Source: an uncultured delta proteobacterium (GTDB lineage: Bacteria > Myxococcota_A > Polyangia > Polyangiales > Polyangiaceae). Taken from it: a DNA stretch of 64,000 nucleotides. Under the pieces are notes generated by a model. That model was not told where the DNA came from. It saw only the letters and a program-made list of their open reading frames with translations, and made no database searches. The DNA is taken from the NCBI GenBank assembly GCA_963827955.1, contig CAWHDJ010000018.1, positions 1,053,297 through 1,117,296 of the forward strand. The letters are read 5' to 3'. The translations under genes were made by a program, and so were the position numbers. Positions 39,480 through 63,546 of this stretch are shown here, piece by piece. How positions within the stretch are numbered: position 1 is the stretch's first letter; each line of letters begins with the position of its first letter.

Positions 39480-40570
39480 GTTCAACAATACCGCGTCACC
39501 ATCGAACGGAGCCTCGGTGCTGTTCGACAAACCCTTGGCGCCGTCGAACCGGTCCGCGGCGCCGTTCGACGCGCCCGCGCTCCGTGTGCGCGACCCGGGG
39601 CTCGATGTGCGCGACCCGGGGATCCATGTGCGCGACCCGGGGCGCCATCAAACGGACCCGCGGGGCGATCACACGGACCCGCGGGGTGATCGAATGGATC
39701 CGCGGGGCGATCACACGGACCCGCGGCGCCGTTTGCATTCCCCGCGCGCCGTTGTGTCGGCCGCGCGGCGTCGTGACCGGATCCCCTCGGCGCCGTTCGA
39801 CAAACCCTTGGCGCCATCAAACGGACCCGCGGTGCCGTTCGACAAACCCTCGGCGCCAGTACACGGACCTGCGGGATGATCGAATGGGTCCGCGGGGCGA
39901 TCACACAGACCCGCGGGGTGATCGCATGGATCCGCGGGGCGATCACACGGACCCGCGGGGCGATCACACGGACCCGCAGGGCGATCACACGGACCCGCGG
40001 CACCGTTTGATCGCCCCCGCGGTCGGTCGAACGAATTCCACCGCCGGTGTACGTACCGAAACGCGTCGTGTGAGATGCGCCGGCGCGCCTTCAAACGGCG
40101 CGCGGGGCGATCGAACGGAGCCCGCGACCGGTTGGATCGAGCCCGCGACCGGTTGGATCGAGCCCCGGTGCCGTTCTATGGGGCCGCGGACCGGTGCAAC
40201 GACGCCGGGGGTCCGTGTGATCGCCCCGCGGGTCCGTGTGATCGCCCCGCGGGTCCGTTTGATGGAGCCGCGGGCCCGTGTGATCGCCCCGCGGGTCCGT
40301 TTGATGGAGCCGCGGTCCTGCTCAACGGCGTCGCGGGTCCGTTTGATGGAGCCGCGGAGCGCGCAGACGGAGCGGCAGGAGGCGAAGACGGCGCTGCGGC
40401 CCGTGTAGAAGGAGGGGCGGGGCGCGGAGACGGCGCTGGGGGATCGTTCGACGGCGCCACGGCGCACGCAGATGGTGTCGCGGCTTCGGGAGACGGAGCC
40501 GCGGCGCACGGCCATGGATCCGAGGGGCGCGGAGACGGAGCCGCGGTCCATGTAGAGAAGGAGGGGCGCC
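39480..40570. repeat. Intergenic array of 21-bp tandem repeats organised as inverted arms. Arm A (about 39575-40010) has units CGATCACACGGACCCGCGGGG. Arm B (about 40190-40340) has units GGTCCGTGTGATCGCCCCGCG, the reverse complement. Further 21-bp-periodic units (GAGACGGAGCCGCGG...) run to about 40560.
   Basis: Read directly from the sequence. There are at least 12 units per arm. The spacer contains its own 21-bp direct duplication (gagcccgcgaccggttggatc twice, near 40118-40160). There are no unique spacers, so this is not CRISPR-like. Confidence 0.85.
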
Positions 40571-40600
40571 AGGAGACGCACGAGCCGGTGGGCCGAGGCT

Positions 40601-42305
40601 TCACGGCAGGAGCAAGCCGCCGATCGCGTAGCTCGACCCGGCGGCCTGCGTCCACACGAGGGCCGGCTTCGCCCCGCTCGCGGGGGCGTAGCCGCCCAGG
40701 TAGTTGCGCTGGTTCGAGTCGGAGGGCGTGAGGATGGCCCACATCGACCACGCCGATCCGTCGAAGTACGTGTAGACGATTCTGGCTGCCGTCGTCGGGG
40801 CTGAGCGCGAGCAGGATCACGCCGTCGCCGTAGGGCGCGAGGAAGATGCCGGAGGCCATCAGCGTGCTCAGCGGCTCGATGGTGCCACCCGCTGTCCAGG
40901 TGCCGCCGACGGAGGACAGGATGGCGTGGTCGAAGCCGCACCCGGTGCGCCGGACGACGTGGACCTGGCCGTTCTGGACCGTGGCGGCCCAGTCGTCGTG
41001 GTCGATGGGCGCGCCCGTCGAGAAGACGAGCGGAGGCGTGACGAAGTTGCCGGAGGCGGGCTCGACGGGGGCCCACGCGCCGTTCGTGAAGACGTTCGAG
41101 AGGATGTTGCCGGGCTGCTCGCTGCCCGCGTCGTCGTAGAGCACGAGCGCCGCGTCGTCGAGCGCGAGGACCTGGTGGGATCCGATCGTGCCGGGCACGC
41201 ACCAGAGCACCTGGTGCGTGAAGAGCGCGCTGTTGAAGCCCGACGAGCCGTCGTCCTTGTCCACGCTGGCGAAGACGTCGGAGTCGCCCGCCCCGCAGTC
41301 GCCCATCGCGGAGAGGGAGCCAGGGGGCGAGAAGTCGCCCGTGTTCTCGTACCCGGTCGCGTCCACGACCTGCCCGTTCGAGAGGATGGCGGTGGCGGGG
41401 CCGTCCGGCCAGGCCATCGGCGTGCCCCCGCCCACGAGCTTGTTGATCGACTGCGAGGTGCCGAAGGCGACGTGGCCCGCCGAGATGGTCGCCCGGAGGT
41501 GATAGACGCCGAGGGCGGGGGCCGAGGCGTCGGCGTAGCCCTGCGTGACGTGCACGACGTCCGTGCCCGCGATGAGGCGGTAGGCCACGCTGAGGTCGCG
41601 CCCGTCGCCGTCGGGGCCCGGCTCGGGGGCGAAGATGAGGCTCTCGCCGTCCTGCCACGTGGCGAAATCGGCGCTGAAGCGCGTCGCGAGCTGCCCGCCG
41701 GCCGCCGGGTCGTGGAAGAGCCACCACTGCGAGGCGCCCTCGGCGTACACGATGTGGGTCTGCGATCCGTGGCCCGTGGCCGTGGGGAGCTCGCCGGTGC
41801 TCGCGAGGACGGTGGGCGTCGCGGTCTGGTGGACGGTGACGGCGGCCTCCGCGCTCTTGCTCCCCGCCGTCGCCTTGACGTGGAAGGTCTGGTCCTCCTG
41901 CGGGGCGCGGTAGACGCCCTGCGGTGAGGTGATGGTGCCGCCGCCCGCCTCGACCACGCTCCAGGTGACGTCGGCCGGAGCGCCGTCGAGCGTCGCCGTG
42001 AAGGTGAGCGTGGTCAGCGAGAGGAGCGTCGCCTCCGGCGGCGAGATGCTGAGCCCCGTGCTCTGCCCGCCCGCCCCCGCGGCGCCGCTCGATGTCGACG
42101 TGGCGCTCGCGGTCGACGTGGCGCTCGCGGTCGACATGGAGGACCCGTGGCTTCCCGTCGACGTCGCGGCGGCGCCGCCGCTGCCGCTGCCACCGGCGGC
42201 GCTCGTGGTCGGGACGCCGCTCGAGATCCCGAAGATCGCGTTGCACCCCGCGATCGCGAGGGGGACGACGGCGACCGCGACGGACCATCGTCCTCGGCGC
42301 ATCAT
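40601..42305 (-). CDS. Lipoprotein with a Ser/Thr/Ala-rich linker and a large beta-rich globular domain. There is a frameshift near 40780.
   Basis: Met at 42305 (MMRRGRWSVAVAVVPLAIAGC, lipobox). A long coding-like stretch in ORF 40176..44126 runs to ...LALSPDDGSQ. The true C-terminus ...RIVYTYFDGSAWSMWAILTPSDSNQRNYLGGYAPASGAKPALVWTQAAGSSYAIGGLLLP* is recovered in another frame and ends at the stop at 40601-40603. Confidence 0.6.
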
Positions 42306-50549: not shown

Positions 50550-53494
50550 ATGACCAAAGTCCTCGTTTTCGAAAGCCGATTCGATCGTTCGCCGGGGAGC
50601 TTCGCGCCGAGCTGGGGCGCCTGGGCGCGACCGTGCAGGTGGTCGACGACGGCAACGTCGGGCTGCAGGCGGCCAGCACCGACCGGCCCGACCTCATCCT
50701 GCTCTCCATCGAGCTGCCGCGGATGAACGGGTTCTCGGTGTGCAACAAGCTGAAGAAGGACCCTCACCTCAAGGACGTGCCGCTCGTCATCATGTCGAGC
50801 GAGTCCAGCGAGGAGACCTTCGAGCAGCACCGGAAGCTGCGGACGCGGGCCGAGGACTACATCCACAAGCCGATCGCGTTCGGCGAGCTGCTGCAGCACA
50901 TCCGCGCGTTCGTCCCGCTGGAGCGACCGGCGCGGCCGACGCCGAGGGGATCGTGATCGACGACCTCGACATGGCGGTCGAAGAGGACGCCATGGCGACG
51001 ACCACGGTGCAGGCCCCGTCCCCCCTCCGCAAGTCCGCCGCCCCGCCGGCGCCCGCGCACCATGCCCCGCCCGCCGCGCCGGCCACGCTGGTGTCCCCTG
51101 CCCAGGCCGCGCACGCGCCGGCGGCGCGGATGCCGAAGGCCGACGCCGAGATCGAGGACTTCCTCGGGGGCGCGTTCGGCGACCTGCTCGCGGACGACGA
51201 AGAGGCGATGACGGCGGTGAAGCCGCTCTCCGACTTCGCCGACGTCCTCGGGCCGGCGGCACGGCTCGCGCCCGCTCCCGCTCCGTCGGCGCCGCCGCCC
51301 GTCGCCCACCCTCCGGCGGCGCCCGTCGCCAAAGGGCCGACGGTGGACAGCGGCGTCCACGGCAGGCCGGTGCGGCTCGGCCGCTGACCGCGCCCCCTCC
51401 GGCCGCGGCCGCGCCCTTCGCGTCGAAACCCATCGTGGCCTCGAAATCGAGCGCGATCGCGGCCCCGAGGGCCGCCACCGCGCCGCCGCCGGCTCCCCAG
51501 CCAGCCCCTCACCCGGCCTCCCCCGCGGCCGCTCCTGCGACCCCGCGATCCCCGTCGCCGATACGGCCGAGCTCGAGCGGCTCCGGGCGGAGCTCGAGGC
51601 GCGGACGCGCCGACGCCGAGCGGGCGCGGGCCGAGCTGGAGGAGCACACGAAGGCCGCCGAGGCGGCGCGCGCCGAGCTGGAGCGGAAGCTCGCCGAGGC
51701 GGTCGGGGAACGCGCGGAGCTTTCGCAGGCCAAGGACGAGCTCGTCAGGCTGGCGCGGGAGGCCGACCAGGCGCGGGCGACCGCCGGCCGCCTCGAGGCC
51801 GAGGTGGAGCTGGCGCGCGAGGGCGCCGCCGAGGCGGCGCGGCTGCGGCGCGAGCTCGAGGAGCTGAAGCGCGGCGCCCGCGCGGCCCCCGCGGCGCCGG
51901 TCAAGGCGGGCGCGGTGTCGAGCCGCGAGTTCCTCGATCTGCGCGAGGCGCTCAACAAGAAGGACAAGGAGATCCTCGAACGCTGCGCGACCAGCTCTCG
52001 CGCCAGCGACAAGGAGCTCATCGACGACGCGCGATCAGGGCCTCGCGCTCGAGCGCGAGAAGGCCGACCAGGAGGACAAGCTCCTCGAGCTGGAGCGCGC
52101 CAAGAACGAGCTCGAGGTCCAGGCGGAGGCCGCCGCGGCCGAGAAGGAGGCCGCCCAGCAGCGCCTCGACGCGCTCGAGGCGCGCTCGCGAGCGGGCGCG
52201 AGCAGGCCGAGGCGCGACGCCGGCCGACCGCGACGCGAGGCCCGCGAAGACGAGCGCCGCAACGCGCAGGCCTGCCGCGAAGCTGGTGCACGCGGCGGCG
52301 ATCTGCCGGGGAGCGCGGCCGCGCGCACGAGGCGGCGCTCGGCCGCCGCGGCGGCCGAAGGCGGCGGGGCGCCAGCGGCGAGGCGGCCGCCGTCGGCGGC
52401 CGAGCGCGAAGGGCAAAGGCACGCGACGCGGCGGTCGAGGGCGCCAGGGCCGAGCACCGCCGCGAGCTCGCCGCGCTGGAGGAGAAGGCGGCGCGCGCGC
52501 TCGAGGATCGCGAGGCGGCGCGCTGCGCGCCGAGATGGGCGCGAAGGAGGCGGCGGCCGCCGAGAAGCTCGCGGCCCGCGGGCGCGCGCTGGCGGAGGTG
52601 CGGGCGGCGGCGCTGGCCGAGCAGGCGGCGGCGCTGGCCGCCGAGAAGGCGAGCTCGTGGGGCGCCTCGCCGCGGGCCGGACGCGCTGGCCGAGGCGAAG
52701 GGCCGCGCGCGAAGGCGGAGGAGCGGGCGGCGTCGCCGACGCGGCGCTGGCCGCGCGGCACCGCCGAGCTGGCCGGGCTGAAGGAGATGCTCGCCGCCGC
52801 GGAGGAGGACCTGCGCGCGCACACCGCGGCGCTCTCGGAGGCGCGGGAGAAGCTGGCGGCCGCCGAGAAGCGATTCTCGCGGCGCCGCACGGCGGAGCGC
52901 GACGCGCTCGGCGTCGACCTCGAGAAGCGGGCGGCGGAGCGCGACGGGTTCCGGGCCGACCTCGACGCGCGGACGGCGGAGCGCGACGGGCTGCGGGCGG
53001 ACCTGGAGAGCTCGACGGGGAGCTGGGCGACCGCACCCGCGAGCGCGACGGGCTGCGCGTCGACCTCGCCCAGCGCACCGAGGAGCGCGAGGCTCGGCCG
53101 GCGAGCTGGAGACGCGTACGCGTGAGCGCGACGGCCTGCGCATCGATTTCGACGCGCGCACCGCGCGAGCGCGACGGCCTCCAGGGCGAGCTGGACGCGA
53201 CCCGCGACCGGCTCGAGGCCGCGGAGCAGAAGGCGGCGGTGCGCGAGGCCGACCTCGGCGGCCCGGACCGAGGAGCGCGATCAGCTCCAGGGCGAGCTGG
53301 CGAGCCGCACCGACGAGCGCGACGCCGCCCGCGGCGAGAGGCGAGCGGCTCGCCGCCGCTCGCCCGCGAGGGGCCCGGCTCGAGAAGGCGCGCGTCCGCT
53401 GGGGCGAGGACCGGCAGGCGCTCGATGCGGCGCGGAGGCGCTCGCCGCCGTGGCGGCGCAGATCGAGGCGGCCGCCGAGCGCCCCATCGAGTGA
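50550..53494 (+). CDS. Response-regulator receiver domain, then a Pro/Ala-rich linker, then a long coiled-coil. This is a FrzS/AglZ-like architecture. Many frame changes are needed.
   Basis: Receiver: MTKVLVFES... then ELRAELGRLGATVQVVDDGNVGLQAASTDRPDLILLSIELPRMNGFSVCNKLKKDPHLKDVPLVIMSSE...DYIHKPIAF. Coiled-coil: ELERKLAEAVGERAELSQAKDELVRLAREADQARATAGRLEAEVELAREGAAEAARLRRELEELKRG, with later periodic units of the form R-T-x-E-R-D-G-L-R-x-D-L. Terminal IEAAAERPIE* ends at 53494. Confidence 0.5.
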
Positions 53495-58493: not shown

Positions 58494-60686
58494 TCAACCC
58501 TCCGAGATCGTCCGCACCCCCGCCGCGCGCAGCACCTCCCGCGGCGGGATGCTCCCGATCATCACGAGCGCCGCGTCCCACCCCATCGAGGCTTCCCCTT
58601 CCGGCCCGCGCAGCGTGAGGTGGTCGGCCGCGAGCGCGGCGACCTCCGTCCGCAGGTGGAGCGCCACGCGCCCCGCGTCGACGAGCCGCTTCACCTCCGC
58701 GATGTTGCGCGCCTTCCCTCGCGCAAAGCCCTCGCCGCGGTGGACGAGGGTCACGCGCGTGCCCGGCTGGCGCGAGAGCGCGACGGCGGCCTCCATCGCC
58801 ACGTCCCCGAGCCCGACCACGACCACGCGCATCCCCTCGAAGCTCCTCGCGTCCGCCAGGTGGTAGTGCACGCGCGCTTCGACCTCGGGGGCGAGCGGGA
58901 AGCCGAGCCGGCGCGGCGATCCGCGCTGGCCGATGGCGAGCAGCACGCGCCGCGCCCGGATCACCTCGGTCGCGCCGCCCTCGCGCGGCGCGACCGTGAC
59001 GAGGAACCCGCCGTCGTCCCTGGCGAGGTCCGTCATGCGCGTGTCCTCGCGGATGGGCAGCCGCGCCTGCCGCACGATGCGCAGCCAGTGCGAGAGCAGC
59101 TCCTCCTTCGTCGACTCTCGCAGCCAGAGCTTGCCCGTCACCGGCAGCTCGAGAGGCTGGTCGAAGACCAGCTTGCCGCGCGGGAAGCTCCGGATGCTCT
59201 GCGCGACGCTCCCCTGCTCGATCACCTGCAGAGAGAGCCCGAGCTCGCCCGCGCGGAGCGCCGCGCTGATGCCCGCCGGCCCCGCGCCCACGATCAAGAG
59301 GTCGAGCGCGCCTCCGCCGCGCGCCCGGTCGCCGGCGCCGAGGCTCGCGGCGACGCGCTCGGCGGCGCGGGCGCCCTGCAGGATGGCGTTCTTGATGAGC
59401 GGGAGGCCGGTGACGTCTCCGGCCAGGTAGAGGCCGGGCACGTCGAGGCTGTCGAGGTCTGCGCCGAGGCGTGGGCGGTCGCCGATGGGCTCGCCGTCGG
59501 CGATGCGCAGCGACCCGTTCGGGCAGCGCTGCTCGCAGAGCGTGAGGCCACAGCAGGCGTCGGGGCGCACCACGACGGCGACGTAACGCTCGACGTCGAT
59601 GACGTCGTAGGGGCAGGCGTCGACGCACGCGTAGCAGCCGAGGCACGTGCTGGTGTCGATCTGCGGCAGGCGCACCCGGGGCGCGGCCTCGGGGACGGTG
59701 GAGGGCGCGGGCCGCCTCCGCCTGCGTCGCAGCGCGTCGGCGCCGCGGACGCAGGCGAACGCGAGCGCGGCGGCGCCGAGCCCCGTCGAGAGCCCGATCC
59801 ACGCGCCCCCCGCGGACGCCGACGCGCGGACCACCGGCACCAGGGCCGCCGCCTCGCGCGCCGCGTCCCAGGCGACGGCGCGGTCCTGCGTGTGGTTGCC
59901 CGCGCAGACGGCGCCGCCGCGATCGCCCTCGCCGGGCCTGCGCCGGCCGCCCGCATCGTCAAGAGCCCTCAGCGGGGGTTTGGGGGCGAAGCCCCCATCG
60001 TCGGCAGGGAGCGCGGGGGTGTGCTCGTCGAAGCAGACGACGGGGCGGGCGTCGCCGAGCGCCTCCTGCCCGTGGAGGAAGCAGCGGGCGATCGGGTCGT
60101 TCGGCGAGGCGACGTCGTGGCAGGGCTTGCAGCTCCCGGCGCTGGGGATCGCCACCGTGGCGCGGCGCGCCGGGTGGAAGCCGACGCCGGCGACCTCGAC
60201 CTCGGCCCCGGGGGCGAAGCGAACCGGGGTGGCATCGGGCGCGAAGACGACGCCCTGGTCGCCGAGGTGGATGGGGTGGCAGGTGGCGCAGGTCATGGTG
60301 CCGCGCGCGAGGGCCGCGGTGTGGCCGCGGCGGATGGACGAGTGCGCGCCGTGGCAGCCCTTGCAGGCGGCGCTCGCGGGCGGGGCGGCGCGATCGCCCG
60401 GGCCGGCGCCGGTGTGGCACGCGCTGCACGAGAGCTGCGCGTCGAGGTGGGGACGCGAGAGCGGGCCGGGGGCGCCGCCCGTGCCCGGCGGGGAGACGAG
60501 GCGCACGGCGATGAACGCGGCGGCGCCGCCTGCGACGGCGGCGGCGAGCACGCCCCGGAAGCGGCTGACGTCCGAGGTGGGCTCCGCGCGCGCGACGGCG
60601 CGGCCCCGGGCGCGGGGCAGGGGGAGCGCCGCGCGATCGCGGGCGTCGGAGAGGCCGGCGGTGAAGAGGGACTTGTCCGAGGGCAT
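58494..60686 (-). CDS. Multi-domain redox protein with an N-terminal TM anchor, four CxxCH heme-c motifs, a second TM helix, a 4Fe-4S ferredoxin module and an FAD/NAD(P)-binding pyridine-nucleotide-disulfide-oxidoreductase-like domain.
   Basis: Internal Met at 60686 (MPSDKSL...GVLAAAVAGGAAAFIAVRLV). Heme motifs: CSACH, CKGCH, CATCH, CKPCH. TM: GLGAAALAFACV. Ferredoxin: CLGCYACVDACP...CEQRCP. FAD fold: LLIVGAGPAGISAAL...VVVVGLGDVAMEAAVAL. The 86 codons upstream, from the ORF start at 60944, are read from the 21-mer repeat array and are treated as non-coding. Confidence 0.6.
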   Translation of the reverse strand: MPSDKSLFTAGLSDARDRAALPLPRARGRAVARAEPTSDVSRFRGVLAAAVAGGAAAFIAVRLVSPPGTGGAPGPLSRPHLDAQLSCSACHTGAGPGDRAAPPASAACKGCHGAHSSIRRGHTAALARGTMTCATCHPIHLGDQGVVFAPDATPVRFAPGAEVEVAGVGFHPARRATVAIPSAGSCKPCHDVASPNDPIARCFLHGQEALGDARPVVCFDEHTPALPADDGGFAPKPPLRALDDAGGRRRPGEGDRGGAVCAGNHTQDRAVAWDAAREAAALVPVVRASASAGGAWIGLSTGLGAAALAFACVRGADALRRRRRRPAPSTVPEAAPRVRLPQIDTSTCLGCYACVDACPYDVIDVERYVAVVVRPDACCGLTLCEQRCPNGSLRIADGEPIGDRPRLGADLDSLDVPGLYLAGDVTGLPLIKNAILQGARAAERVAASLGAGDRARGGGALDLLIVGAGPAGISAALRAGELGLSLQVIEQGSVAQSIRSFPRGKLVFDQPLELPVTGKLWLRESTKEELLSHWLRIVRQARLPIREDTRMTDLARDDGGFLVTVAPREGGATEVIRARRVLLAIGQRGSPRRLGFPLAPEVEARVHYHLADARSFEGMRVVVVGLGDVAMEAAVALSRQPGTRVTLVHRGEGFARGKARNIAEVKRLVDAGRVALHLRTEVAALAADHLTLRGPEGEASMGWDAALVMIGSIPPREVLRAAGVRTISEG

Positions 60687-60699
60687 CCGCGACCGAGCG

Positions 60700-61200
60700 A
60701 GCGTAGCCCGGCACGCCGTGCCCCGGGGAGCCGCATACGACGGGCTGGCCCCCGCATACGACGGGCTGGCCAACGCATGCGATGGGCTGGCCACCGCGTA
60801 CGATGGGCTGGCCACCCAATGCGACGGGCTGGCCCCCGCATACGATGGGCTCGCCAACACATGCGACGGGCTGGCCCCCGCATACGACGGGCTGGTCACC
60901 GCATACGATGGGCTGGCCAGCCCATACGACGGCCTGGCCACCAAATACGACGGGCTGGGTCATCGCATACGATGGGCTGGCCCCCGCATACGACGGGATG
61001 GCCAGCCCATACGACGGGGTGGCCAGCCCATCGTACGCGGTGGCCAGCCCATCGTACGCGGTGGCCAGCCCATCGTACGCGGTGGCCAGGCCGTCGTATG
61101 GGCTGGCCAGCCCATCGTACGCGGTGGCCAGCCCATCGTACGCGGTGGCCAGCCCGTACGACGGGGTGGCCAGCCCGTACGACGGCGTGGCCGGGGCGTC
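60700..61200. repeat. Second intergenic array of 21-bp tandem repeats with inverted arms. Arm A (about 60727-61010) has units GCATACGACGGGCTGGCC(ACC/CCC). Arm B (about 61020-61150) has units CCATCGTACGCGGTGGCCAGC, the reverse complement. A short run reverts to arm A orientation at 61150-61195.
   Basis: Read directly. There are about 14 units in arm A and about 6 in arm B. It sits immediately 5' of the cytochrome-fusion gene start and 3' of the MglA-like gene. Confidence 0.85.
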
Positions 61201-61266
61201 CAATTCGCGAGGGATTACGCGCGCCTGGAGCGGCAGCGGGGCGGAGCCGCCGGCCCGGTGGGCCGG

Positions 61267-62700
61267 CTAGTGGATCGAGCTGCGCGCCAGGCGACAGTCG
61301 ATCGCGAACGCGTACGCCGCGAGGGCCTCCCGGGCGGTGATCAGGCCGTCGCCGCGCGCCTCGCGCACGATGCTGCGGAAGGAGAGGTAGCGGCGGCCGT
61401 CGAGCCCGAGGAGCATGGGGACGACGGTGGCGTCGCGGGGCGCGCCGGTGGTGCCGAAGAGGCCCGCGGCGCTCGCGAGGACACGAGAGACCAGCGTCTC
61501 GCAGAGCTCGATCGCGCGCCAGTAGCGGCCGCGGTGGATCGCGTCCTCGACCTCGCGCACCGTGTCCTGCTCGCCCTCGGGCCACAGCTCGGCGAACGAC
61601 AGGCCCGATGGCCCGGCCGCGTCGCGCAGGAGCGACGGGGCGGCGACGCTCGCCGGCGCGGGCTCGGGGGACGGCTCCAGCAAGGATCCGATGGATCCAA
61701 CGGCGCCGGCGCCGTCGGGTGGGGGAGGAGAGGTGGCGAAGCTCGGACGCACCAGGGGCAGCGGGCGGCTGTCGGTGTCCTCGAACGCCATGGCGGGGGC
61801 GGCGAGGCCGTCGCCGGGGCGAGCGGCGGGATCCGGAGAAGTAAGGATGAGGGACGCCTCGGGGAGGGTCGCCGCCTTGGGGATCTCCGGGGGGGCCGGC
61901 GGCGGCTCGCTCGGGGGGCTCGCCGCCGTGAACGACTCCTCGAACGGCGTCGGCGTCTCCGGCGGGATCGAGGGGTGCGCGCCGGGGGCGCCGATGCGGG
62001 CGAAGACGACGTCGCTCGGGGGCTCGGCGCGCACCGAGGCGTCGCGCAGCGCGGTGACCAGCCCGCCCTCGGCGGGCTCGAAGCTGCCGTCGATCTCGCC
62101 GTCGGTGAGCTCGGGCAGCCGGTCCTTGAAGGCCGTGAGGACGCGCTCGCTGATCTTCTCGAGCGCCTCGTAGATCCCCTCGCCGGTCCTGGCCGAGGTG
62201 GGGATCGAGGGCGCGCCGAAGGGGTTCAGGATGCTGTCGAGCTCCTCGACGGGGAGCAGGTCGGGCAGATCGCGCTTGTTGTGCTGGAAGACGAGGGGCA
62301 TCGTCGCGAACTCCCGCCCTTGTTCGGCGAGGTTCTCGCGCAGGTTCTCCAGGCTCTCCAGGTTGGCGTCGGCCCGCACGAGCTGCGAGTCGCCCACGAA
62401 GACGACGCCGTCGGCGCCCGTGAGCACGAGCTTGCGCGTGGCGTTGAAGTACACCTGCCCGGGGACCGTGAAGAGCTGCAGGCGGACGTGCATCCCCCGC
62501 ACCGGCGGCAGGCGCACGGGCAGGAAATCGAAGTAGAGCGTCCGGTCGACGGGCGTCGCCAGGCTGACCAGCTTGCCGCGGTGCTCGGGCTTCGCGGTGG
62601 CGTGGATGTGCTCCAGCGTGGTCGTCTTGCCGCCGAGCCCGGGCCCGTAATACACGATCTTGAAGACGAGCTCGCGCGAGAGCGGGTTGACCGACGCCAT
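61267..62700 (-). CDS. MglA-family Ras-like small GTPase with a Pro-rich C-terminal extension of about 290 aa that ends in a helical domain.
   Basis: Met at 62700: MASVNPLSRELVFKIVYYGPGLGGKTTTLEHIH...DRTLYFDFLPV...LFTVPGQVYFNATRKLVLTGADGVVFVGDSQ...QHNKRDLP. The P-loop, switch and NKxD motifs are close to M. xanthus MglA. The extension (...SFAELWPEGEQDTVREVEDAIHRGRYWRAIELCETLVSRV...) is unrelated to MglA. Confidence 0.8.
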   Translation of the reverse strand: MASVNPLSRELVFKIVYYGPGLGGKTTTLEHIHATAKPEHRGKLVSLATPVDRTLYFDFLPVRLPPVRGMHVRLQLFTVPGQVYFNATRKLVLTGADGVVFVGDSQLVRADANLESLENLRENLAEQGREFATMPLVFQHNKRDLPDLLPVEELDSILNPFGAPSIPTSARTGEGIYEALEKISERVLTAFKDRLPELTDGEIDGSFEPAEGGLVTALRDASVRAEPPSDVVFARIGAPGAHPSIPPETPTPFEESFTAASPPSEPPPAPPEIPKAATLPEASLILTSPDPAARPGDGLAAPAMAFEDTDSRPLPLVRPSFATSPPPPDGAGAVGSIGSLLEPSPEPAPASVAAPSLLRDAAGPSGLSFAELWPEGEQDTVREVEDAIHRGRYWRAIELCETLVSRVLASAAGLFGTTGAPRDATVVPMLLGLDGRRYLSFRSIVREARGDGLITAREALAAYAFAIDCRLARSSIH

Positions 62701-62919
62701 GTGGTACGGGCGCGACGATATCACCAAACGTCGCCGGGGCTGATTTTTGAGACCCGGTTCCCCTGCGGCGGCCTCCCGTGGGCGGCCCCGTAAGATCGCG
62801 CCCCCTTCGCCCGTTCTCCCTGCGTGCAGCTCGCCGCGATCCCCGCCTGGCCCCTGGCCCTCGCCGCGCTCGGCGGCGGGGGGCCTCCGCCGGTCGTGCG
62901 GCCTCCGCCGCGTCCGGGT

Positions 62920-63546
62920 ATCGTGGCGCGCGTGGCCGTCGCCCGCACCGACCTGGAGGCAGAGCGCGCGCTCGTGGGCCGCGCCCACGCGGGCGACCGC
63001 GGCGCGCTCGGCCAGATCCTGCGGCACCACGGGCCCTCGCTCTACCGGTCGGTGCTCCTGCCCAGGCTCGGATCGGAGGCGGCCGCGCAGGACGCGCTGG
63101 CCGAGACGTACGCGCGCGTGGTGGAGCGCTTCCACCAGTTCACGTGGCAGAATACCGGCGTCTACCCGTGGCTGCGCGTGGTCGCGCTCCGCATCGCCCT
63201 CGACGCGCTCCGGGCGCGCCGGCGCGAGACGCTCTTCGAGCCCGACGACCTGGAGCGCGAGATCGACGCCTCGGAGCGCGACCTCTCCCGCACGGGGGAC
63301 GCCGAGCTCTGCGAGAAGCGCGATCTGGCCGAGGCGCGCGCCCGCGTCGAGGCCGCGCTCGGCAAGCTCAACCCGCGCTACGCGAGCGCGATCCGCCAGC
63401 GCGTCCTCGAGGAGCGGTCCCGTGAGGAGGTGGCCGCCGCGCTGGGGGTGAGCGTGGCCACCTTCGACGTGGTCCTGCACCGGGCCATGGGCTCGCTGAA
63501 GAAAGCGCTTGCAAGCGGGCAGAGCGGGCCCAAGGAGGAGTCGTGA
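62920..63546 (+). CDS. ECF sigma factor. The start is uncertain; the ORF opens at 62824.
   Basis: GRAHAGDRGALGQILRHHGPSLYRSVLLPRLGSEAAAQDALAETYARVVERFHQFTWQNTGVYPWLRVVALRIALD (region 2) and RYASAIRQRVLEERSREEVAAALGVSVATFDVVLHRAMGSLKK (region 4). Confidence 0.7.
   Translation: MVARVAVARTDLEAERALVGRAHAGDRGALGQILRHHGPSLYRSVLLPRLGSEAAAQDALAETYARVVERFHQFTWQNTGVYPWLRVVALRIALDALRARRRETLFEPDDLEREIDASERDLSRTGDAELCEKRDLAEARARVEAALGKLNPRYASAIRQRVLEERSREEVAAALGVSVATFDVVLHRAMGSLKKALASGQSGPKEES

Follow-up and report, generated by a model that had tools for sequence, protein, structure and literature searches.

A 21-bp tandem-repeat array with an internal inverted block at a synteny break between an MglA-like GTPase gene and a redox fusion gene in a Polyangiaceae genome

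The intergenic array and its flanking genes

The stretch of DNA analysed here (64 kb; hereafter the window) has a G+C content of 71.7% and is assigned by its homologues to the Polyangiaceae, the nearest named genus being Minicystis, with 66-67% identity for the redox protein described below. Two genes on the minus strand bound the region of interest. The upstream gene codes for an MglA-like small GTPase (Pfam Ras/Arf) with a long, proline-rich C-terminal extension, homologues of which in Minicystis and Polyangium carry the names MglA or gliding motility protein. The downstream gene codes for a redox fusion protein, which comprises an N-terminal transmembrane segment, a CxxCH multihaem cytochrome c3-like region, a 2x[4Fe-4S] ferredoxin and an FAD/NAD(P) pyridine-nucleotide-disulphide oxidoreductase (Pfam Pyr_redox_3, 6.7e-29; Pyr_redox_2; Fer4_7; Cytochrom_c3_2). 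ECF sigma-factor genes are found on both sides, beyond the flanking genes. Between the GTPase and redox genes lies an array of 21-bp tandem repeats in both orientations, which a first-pass annotation had located at 60700-61200 and which was recovered both by Tandem Repeats Finder and by counting its core motif. The array is intergenic, lying 74 nt past the GTPase stop codon, 57 nt past an adjoining stem-loop and approximately 44-45 nt before the ATG at 60686, in keeping with the closeness to the start of the redox gene that had been claimed for it. The features of the locus are as follows:

58494-60686, minus strand: redox fusion gene, downstream of the array (730 aa, ATG at 60686)
60687-60709, minus strand: conserved leader or promoter-proximal segment, GGGCTACGCTCGCTCGGTCGCGG and then the ATG
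60710-60722: small palindrome GGCAC-GCC-GTGCC in the interval between array and leader, paired in the predicted folds
60731-61024, minus strand: forward block of 14 units of 21 bp, minus-strand consensus GGCCAGCCCGTCGTATGCGGT
61021-61150, plus strand: inverted block of 6 units
61151-61192, minus strand: second forward block of 2 units of the symmetric-flank subtype GGCCACCCCGTCGTACGGGCT
61193-61249: spacer separating the array from the hairpin on the GTPase side, unique and lineage-specific
61250-61266, minus strand: G+C-rich stem-loop CCGGCCC-ACC-GGGCCGG with a 7-bp stem, adjoining the GTPase stop codon
61267-62700, minus strand: MglA-like small GTPase gene, upstream of the array (477 aa, stop codon at 61267-61269)

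Tandem Repeats Finder delimits a single array at 60731-61192, with a period of 21, 22.0 copies, 81% matches and a score of 364. The core GGCCAGCCCRTCGTAYGC, allowing up to three mismatches, is matched 22 times in the 64-kb window against an expectation of 0.73 from shuffled sequence, and all but one of these matches fall inside the array. The units are contiguous and head-to-tail, without linkers and with a start-to-start spacing of 21 bp, and are ordered in blocks, with 14 units in one orientation followed by six in reverse complement and two in the first orientation again. The core matches follow the same order, 13 being on the minus strand (60733-61024), six on the plus strand (61021-61143) and two on the minus strand (61154-61192). 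A degenerate 22-nt unit within the forward block (60941-60962) displaces both the register and the reading frame by 1 nt. One sequence (GGCCAGCCCATCGTACGCGGT) accounts for five of the six units in the inverted block and is forward variant 60794 read exactly in reverse complement; the remaining unit stands in the same exact relation to the forward variant at 60920.

At each of the two orientation switches (61021-61024 and 61147-61150) the blocks share a GGCC, on which an imperfect palindrome is centred. This GGCC sits within the palindrome GGGCTGGCCAGCCC formed at the unit joints, and the 21-bp register is preserved across both switches. The arms at 60953-61022 and 61023-61092, each of 70 nt, are 80% complementary and lie 0 nt apart, and hybrid units with symmetric flanks (at 61004, 61151 and 61172) border the switches. 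A 10-bp palindrome, GCTGGCCAGC, also occurs at the unit joints. Every unit retains invariant GGCCA and TCG positions, the differences among units are a plain mix of transitions and transversions, and neighbouring units are identical in runs.

The unit was sought outside the array in a range of sequence collections. No second copy is present in the 64-kb window, a two-unit pattern yielded zero matches in a metagenome collection, and a one-unit pattern yielded only isolated chance matches in metagenomes, together with one in viral contigs. Searches with blastn against 72,556 plasmids and against a phage collection likewise gave no match. Within the DNA and the collections searched, the unit is thus not a dispersed or mobile repeat, and an origin from a mobile element, phage or plasmid was rejected on the same grounds.

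Coding potential and the start of the redox gene

The first-pass annotation had observed that the minus-strand frame of the redox gene remains open for 86 codons above the Met at 60686, giving (A/V)xSPSYA heptads, and this is indeed the case, the resulting open reading frame (58494-60944) coding for 816 aa from a TTG start. Its proposal that the heptads form a low-complexity N-terminal extension of the protein was not upheld by the starts of the orthologues, the gene call of the source assembly or the codon statistics, which are those of non-coding DNA. The phase shared with the redox gene and a period that is a multiple of three both speak for translation of the array, or of its first 10 units, from the TTG at 60944. 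The open frame has no evidential value, since in DNA of 72% G+C nearly all frames of the array lack stop codons, namely five of the six frames in the forward block and all frames in the other blocks, and the frame in phase with the redox gene spans only about 10 of the 22 units. A 1-nt indel near 60960 moreover breaks every frame.

The comparison of starts to which the first-pass annotation had pointed gave a clear result, as every close orthologue has its start at the equivalent of the Met at 60686. The redox orthologues (66-77% identity) are 719-740 aa in length, with one exception carrying extra C-terminal residues, and the close orthologues start with MPSDKPP... or MA...LY(T/S)AGL, M1 being invariant in an alignment of 15 sequences. 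The source assembly's own gene call is the identical 730-aa protein. Codon composition points in the same direction. In the forward block the frame in phase with the redox gene has a GC3 of 0.81 and a GC1 (0.54) below its GC2 (0.73), whereas three neighbouring genes have a mean GC3 of 0.958 (minimum 0.84 over 82 windows) and a GC1 above GC2. Each unit also contains one codon (TAT, CCA, or GCA on the other strand) that makes up only 2-6% of the codons for its amino acid in real genes.

No homologous protein was found. A 162-aa translation of the array gave nothing at E <= 1e-3 in a word-indexed search of 5.8 billion proteins, while phmmer, run exhaustively with the in-frame peptide of 86 aa, returned 230 matches, all of them periodic, low-complexity look-alikes. 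Among them are a eukaryotic retroelement-like ORF with CSPSYDD repeats, tails of the AAPSYGG type and the C-termini of proteins of the size of the RNA polymerase II large subunit. No match extends past the repeat, and there is no redox fusion among the top matches whose sequences were read. The xSPSYxx heptads resemble the YSPTSPS tail of the RNA polymerase II CTD, and phmmer matched such tails as well as translated eukaryotic minisatellites, but the likeness is one of periodic composition only, with heptads that are not conserved in the orthologues and codon statistics that are non-coding. The sister array found in a close relative (L003, below) has a period of 20 bp, which likewise argues against a coding role. 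Taken with the conserved, non-coding motif immediately upstream of the ATG at 60686, which would fall inside the proposed extension, these data lead to the rejection of an N-terminal extension, for which very little probability remains. For annotation, the start of the redox gene should be placed at 60686 and the array entered as a repeat region, not as part of a coding sequence.

Approximately 30 nt before the redox ATG (GGCTACGCTCGC...CGCGG-ATG) are kept in the three closest relatives (L001, L002 and L003) despite different upstream genes, and the proximal motif GGCTACGCT is absent from 39 loci of more distant relatives, which confines it to the closest clade. The leader at 60687-60709 contains a -10-like TACGCT 13 nt before the ATG, and no Shine-Dalgarno sequence is evident. 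As read from the sequence, TACGCT may be the -10 element of the redox gene, in which case a near-leaderless mRNA would result. The array overlaps any -35 or upstream-activator region that the gene may have, and an effect on expression is plausible from this placement. Simple scans of 60300-61600 found neither a sigma-70 promoter nor a T-run terminator, and a sigma-54-like GGCAC...TGC at 60710-60722 was discarded when read by eye because its spacing is wrong. The stem-loop at 61250-61266 forms the first helix of the predicted minus-strand fold and is possibly a terminator-like hairpin; it has no U tract and was not called by the T-run terminator scan.

Synteny and the distribution of arrays in relatives

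The neighbourhood of the redox gene was compared with the five loci that hold its closest orthologues (L001-L005). Upstream of the redox orthologue, L001 contains PGI, L005 contains a cNMP-binding/4Fe-4S gene that abuts the redox orthologue, L002 and L004 contain the cNMP-binding/4Fe-4S gene with a short unannotated gene (261-276 aa) in between, and L003 contains an inserted gene on the opposite strand. Neither an MglA-like gene nor an array lies upstream of the redox orthologue in any of the five, and the 64-kb window contains no copy of the cNMP/Fe-S partner gene. The MglA-like orthologues keep a divergent ECF sigma-factor gene, also present in the window, and are followed downstream by a convergent neighbour, which is either a rodA-pbp2-mreDC-mreB cluster some 50 nt away or a GT87 gene that overlaps them. 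No array was found downstream of them at the loci compared, and the spacer at 61193-61249 has no similarity to the DNA in that position. The comparison of orthologous loci recommended in the first-pass annotation thus places no array at either flanking-gene position in the relatives.

Similarity to the relatives ends at the GTPase stop codon and resumes approximately 30 nt before the redox ATG, so the intervening 557 bp (60710-61266), of which 462 bp are array, have no counterpart in the relatives and are lineage-specific. The two flanking genes are never neighbours in the relatives compared, making the array the site of a two-sided synteny break; no genome of a close relative was recovered, the best orthologues of the flanking genes being 76-77% identical and without this locus.

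A second array in the window, at 39480-40570 (locus 1), lies 21 kb from the present one. The architecture that the first-pass annotation had described as common to both was substantiated, locus 1 being likewise built of inverted blocks with spacings that are multiples of 21 (plus units at 39653-40000, minus units at 40205-40341). The units themselves differ, as had also been stated, matching at only 10-11 of 21 positions, which is the level of shuffled sequence. A heptad P-[FY]-D-G-x-A that can be read at both loci was considered as a sign of a common protein or origin and set aside as coincidence, because the DNA units match at no more than this level.

Arrays are also present at three of the five relatives' loci examined first, with unrelated units and in each case between genes called as convergent:

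L002: 21 bp, 4.8 copies, in a gap between convergent genes
L003: 20 bp, about 24 copies, with 2-3 inverted units at the end, in a gap between convergent genes
L004: 21/42 bp, 13 copies, in a gap between convergent genes

Most of the relatives' arrays lack an inverted block, and their units are not self-complementary. In Sorangium cellulosum So ce56, a short array of period 20 bp (L020, 15440-15540) likewise combines units of both orientations. The Sorangium motif GGAAGCCTTC was considered as a dispersed repeat and this was ruled out, the motif forming local arrays only. A survey of 80 further Polyangia loci from GTDB genomes, approximately 1.6 Mb in all, showed that the commonest periods among arrays of at least four copies are 21 (13 arrays), 18 (9), 24 (6) and 20 (4). 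With crude, GC3-based gene calls, the extragenic arrays occupy 15 convergent, 14 tandem and 4 divergent gaps against a background of 87 convergent, 281 tandem and 70 divergent gaps, at least two of the four in divergent gaps being miscalls inside locus 1. The resulting enrichment in convergent gaps has an odds ratio of 3.4 (p 0.0016), or 3.7 (p 0.003) when orthologous Sorangium sites are collapsed and a third case from the window is counted as coding; these values rest on rough gene calls, and coding tails may be included among the arrays whose period is divisible by three. The enrichment is therefore no more than suggestive, and would fit either a tolerance of arrays where spacers lack promoters or a function at 3' ends. 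The preference for intergenic promoters proposed in the first-pass annotation is not borne out, since the relatives' arrays lie mostly between convergent genes. No description of arrays of this kind in myxobacteria was found in the searchable literature.

Folding, origin and significance of the array

Folding prediction for the minus-strand transcript of 60687-61266 gives a single extended, imperfect hairpin of -463.5 kcal/mol, with z -19 relative to dinucleotide-shuffled sequence. The predicted fold of the plus strand is nearly equal (-449.5 kcal/mol), and locus 1 folds better on the strand opposite to its flanking genes, so there is no G-U asymmetry of the kind that would suggest selection on RNA. 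Selection at the RNA level was dismissed on account of this missing strand asymmetry and of the lack of any Rfam family, the whole window giving 0 matches to Rfam 15 at the gathering threshold. A quasi-palindromic unit was likewise eliminated as the source of the hairpin, the best self-complementarity of the unit (0.57) being at the chance level (0.56 +/- 0.07 for shuffles). The predicted hairpin arises instead from the true inverted block together with weak modelled pairing between G+C-rich repeats.

The array could nevertheless be a selected RNA or DNA hairpin between the GTPase and redox genes, acting as terminator, insulator or stabiliser of mRNA ends and reflecting a habit of 3'-end arrays in the Polyangiaceae. 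The size of the predicted hairpin accords with such a role, as do the position of the array downstream of a stop codon, shared with the arrays between convergent genes in L002, L003 and L004, the convergent-gap enrichment (odds ratio 3.4-3.7, p about 0.002-0.003) and the lack of canonical T-run terminators at the locus. Against this, neither strand has a marked advantage in folding and locus 1 favours the non-transcribed strand, a compact hairpin (61250-61266) is already in place at the GTPase stop codon, and most of the relatives' arrays, having neither inverted blocks nor self-complementary units, would form no hairpins. Orthologous positions do without arrays, and an enrichment drawn from crude gene calls could be explained by tolerance in promoter-free spacers. 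A selected hairpin is accordingly judged unlikely. An upstream cis-regulatory element of the redox gene, in which a dimeric protein would bind each 21-bp unit along one face of the helix so as to activate, repress or titrate, is distinctly improbable. The period does correspond to two helical turns, and the invariant GGCCA and TCG of each unit, the 10-bp palindrome at the unit joints, the end of the array about 45 nt before the ATG beside the conserved proximal motif, and the ECF sigma-factor genes on both sides could all be read in its favour. Orthologues with this proximal motif have no array, however, which implies that the array is not needed for the promoter-proximal element, and the relatives' arrays between convergent genes have no promoter to serve. 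As the unit occurs nowhere else, a dedicated binder would have a single target; the variation among units is a plain mix of substitutions; and 22 copies are far above the number in known operator or enhancer arrays.

The intergenic position at a gene 3' end, the presence of both unit orientations, the resemblance of the ~21-bp period to iterons and transposase-binding sites and the location at a rearrangement junction might also be expected of a dispersed or mobile repeat, whether REP/BIME-like, MITE-like or transposon ends with multiple binding sites, or of a plasmid-type iteron or centromere array. With no second copy in 64 kb or in the metagenome, viral, plasmid and phage collections, a unit that is no stem-loop palindrome, and flanking genes without transposase, Rep or Par domains by Pfam (none being evident in the nearby ORFs either), such an origin is very unlikely, and none of these classes resembles a run of 22 contiguous copies. 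Assembly errors are common at repeats, inverted ones included, and a chimeric join would give the same picture as an array placed exactly at a synteny break. Yet the units are diverged (81% matches) and fall into ordered subtypes rather than perfect copies, the array sits within a 1.78-Mb contig, a second array of like design lies 21 kb away, and similar arrays occur in independent assemblies of relatives, including complete Sorangium genomes. There is accordingly very little probability that the array is a mis-assembled or chimeric repeat.

Comparison with known repeat classes supports a different assignment. The array is a lineage-specific bacterial intergenic minisatellite, with head-to-tail units in the range of 10-100 bp, repeated above chance and outside coding sequence. 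In common with intergenic minisatellites and VNTRs, such as the mycobacterial MIRU and ETR, it consists of head-to-tail units of tens of bp restricted to one or a few loci, shows lineage-specific presence and probable growth by slippage, and is located in a spacer between co-directional genes. It differs in its internal inverted block, and MIRU units, at 40-100 bp, belong to a dispersed family, whereas the 21-bp unit here is unique. The REP/BIME elements of enterobacteria and pseudomonads are also extragenic, most of them lying at the 3' ends of genes or in convergent gaps, present in both orientations and capable of forming hairpins. The extragenic, 3'-end position is shared by the array. Each REP unit, however, is an imperfect palindrome, and hundreds of copies are dispersed in alternating orientation, while the present unit is not self-complementary, occurs at one locus only (no dispersal in 64 kb or in the metagenome and viral collections), and changes orientation by blocks, without linkers. 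In plasmid iterons and related phased binding-site arrays, direct repeats measuring about 20 bp follow one another every two helical turns, and inverted copies may lie close by. Iterons occur in sets of about 3-7 adjoining a rep gene and an A+T-rich origin, whereas the array has 22 copies at 72% G+C, no adjacent rep or par gene and no similarity to plasmids or plasmid origins. The contiguity of the units, without the unique spacers that separate CRISPR repeats, sets the array apart from that class. Two traits are mildly unusual for a minisatellite, namely the in-register inverted block and the position exactly on a synteny break.

The array is probably a non-coding, locus-specific minisatellite that fills a young intergenic junction. 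A rearrangement in this lineage would have set the redox gene directly downstream of the MglA-like GTPase gene, and of the conserved sequence just upstream of its start the redox gene would have retained no more than about 30 nt. The array most likely then grew by replication slippage or unequal exchange of the 21-bp unit, as the runs of identical neighbouring units suggest. The inverted block most likely derives from intrastrand template switching or from recombination at the joint palindrome GGGCTGGCCAGCCC, since the switches are centred on GGCC, keep the 21-bp register and have symmetric hybrid units alongside. The array would not be translated, and the redox gene would use its own short, conserved proximal promoter or leader. 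Given the inverted copies, a read-through transcript from the GTPase gene, or single-stranded DNA at the replication fork, would be expected to fold into an imperfect hairpin with a predicted stem of approximately 200 bp. The only plausible effect of the array would then be that read-through from one transcription unit into the other, unrelated one is blocked or destabilised, such transcripts being folded and then presumably stopped or degraded. No sign of selection on the array or on this putative effect was found, and its neutrality is an argument from absence.

The clustering of intergenic arrays at 18-21 bp and their approximately 3.5-fold enrichment in convergent gaps could reflect selection rather than mere tolerance, possible selected roles being terminator or insulator function or phased protein binding. 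On a broader and rather improbable reading, the 18-21-bp intergenic arrays of the Polyangiaceae would constitute a functional class, phased at two helical turns and often with inverted blocks, selected at gene 3' ends and rearrangement junctions as insulators, terminators or landing pads for nucleoid proteins, or would conversely be fragile sites that drive the frequent rearrangements seen in these very large genomes. Both large arrays of the window combine a 21-bp period with an internal inverted block, unrelated arrays of similar period occupy promoter-free spacers in the relatives, and the present array marks the exact point at which two conserved neighbourhoods broke and rejoined. If this pattern were to hold genome-wide, it would indicate that the giant genomes of the Polyangiaceae have a process of their own that generates or tolerates repeats, and such a process would be tied to rearrangement junctions or to termination in DNA without canonical terminators.

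Gene context and leader of the redox-fusion gene

In most relatives, the gene coding for the multihaem-cytochrome/ferredoxin/flavoprotein fusion is located just 3' of a gene encoding a cNMP-binding/4Fe-4S protein. The two genes abut in L005, one of the loci carrying the closest redox-gene orthologues, while in two further such loci, L002 and L004, they are separated by a short unannotated gene. The partner gene is missing from the 64-kb window, and the redox-fusion gene encoded there (58494-60686) is thus uncoupled from its usual operon. Four genomes with differing upstream neighbours (the window, L001, L002 and L003) share a conserved leader motif, GGCTACGCTCGC-N7-8-CGCGG-ATG, 5' of the redox gene; the motif was absent from 39 more distant loci. 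It is positioned as follows:

window 60687-60709, leader motif
L001, L002 and L003, leader motif ~30 nt ahead of the ATG in each orthologue

The TACGCT within this motif may represent a -10 element, which would give rise to a near-leaderless mRNA.

On the other side of the locus 2 array, the gene for an MglA-like GTPase, whose C-terminal extension is long and Pro-rich, stands beside a divergent ECF sigma-factor gene (window 61267-63546), an arrangement also observed in the orthologous loci L207-L209 and conserved across the Polyangiaceae. In two relatives, a rodA-pbp2-mreDC-mreB cell-shape cluster is convergent with the GTPase gene.

Locus 1 and a probable coding repeat in the window

The locus 1 array (window 39480-40570) comprises ~45 units of 21 bp and is larger than that of locus 2, to whose unit its own is unrelated. 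The ~200 bp at its centre contain a different 21-bp unit, GAGCCCGCGACCGGTTGGATC, in 2.3 copies, and the plus strand of the locus folds better than the minus strand. These units and a further repeat in the window are:

39653-40000, plus strand, locus 1 units GACCCGCGGGGCGATCACACG
40205-40341, minus strand, locus 1 units
52889-53199, 42-bp (14-aa) repeat, 7.4 copies of TAERDGLRADLEKR-like units

The last of these is probably a coding coiled-coil repeat, which a crude gene-call classifier wrongly placed outside a gene. Close to where the lipoprotein gene ends (window 40550-40820), the phase of codon-position G+C shifts from 0 above ~40820 to 2 at ~40600-40750, which suggests that just before locus 1 there is a short separate ORF, a frameshift or an error in the sequencing.

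Translated minisatellites in protein searches

The protein library includes ORFs which are evidently translated 21-bp minisatellites, among them P0241 (794 aa) and other matches to the locus 2 heptad peptide. A reverse-transcriptase-like eukaryotic protein, for example, carries CSPSYDD/APHMMTA repeats in two frames. As such ORFs reach E-values as low as 1e-38 against any xSPSYxx heptad query, translated minisatellites are a source of false homology.

Arrays in related genomes

Short arrays occur downstream of the redox gene in two Sorangium species, with CTTCC/GGAAG arms as their core, CTTCCGGCGCGCTCGGGAAG in both orientations and CGGAAGCCTTCG; this motif has no dispersed occurrence among the loci examined. 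Intergenic arrays with unrelated units, each between convergent called genes, are found in L002, L003 and L004.

L020 15440-15760, 20-21-bp short array, Sorangium cellulosum So ce56
L075 19394-19488, 20-21-bp short array, Sorangium sp. So ce1128
L002 9863-9963, 21 bp, 4.8 copies
L003 1158-1647, 20 bp, ~24 copies, last 2-3 units inverted
L004 8018-8297, 21/42 bp, 13 copies

The L003 array is adjoined by a 724-aa gene, the same gene that is located between the cNMP/Fe-S and redox genes, and the L004 array by a two-gene module of AAA_21 and DUF4276, and on account of these neighbours both arrays, too, may lie at insertion junctions.
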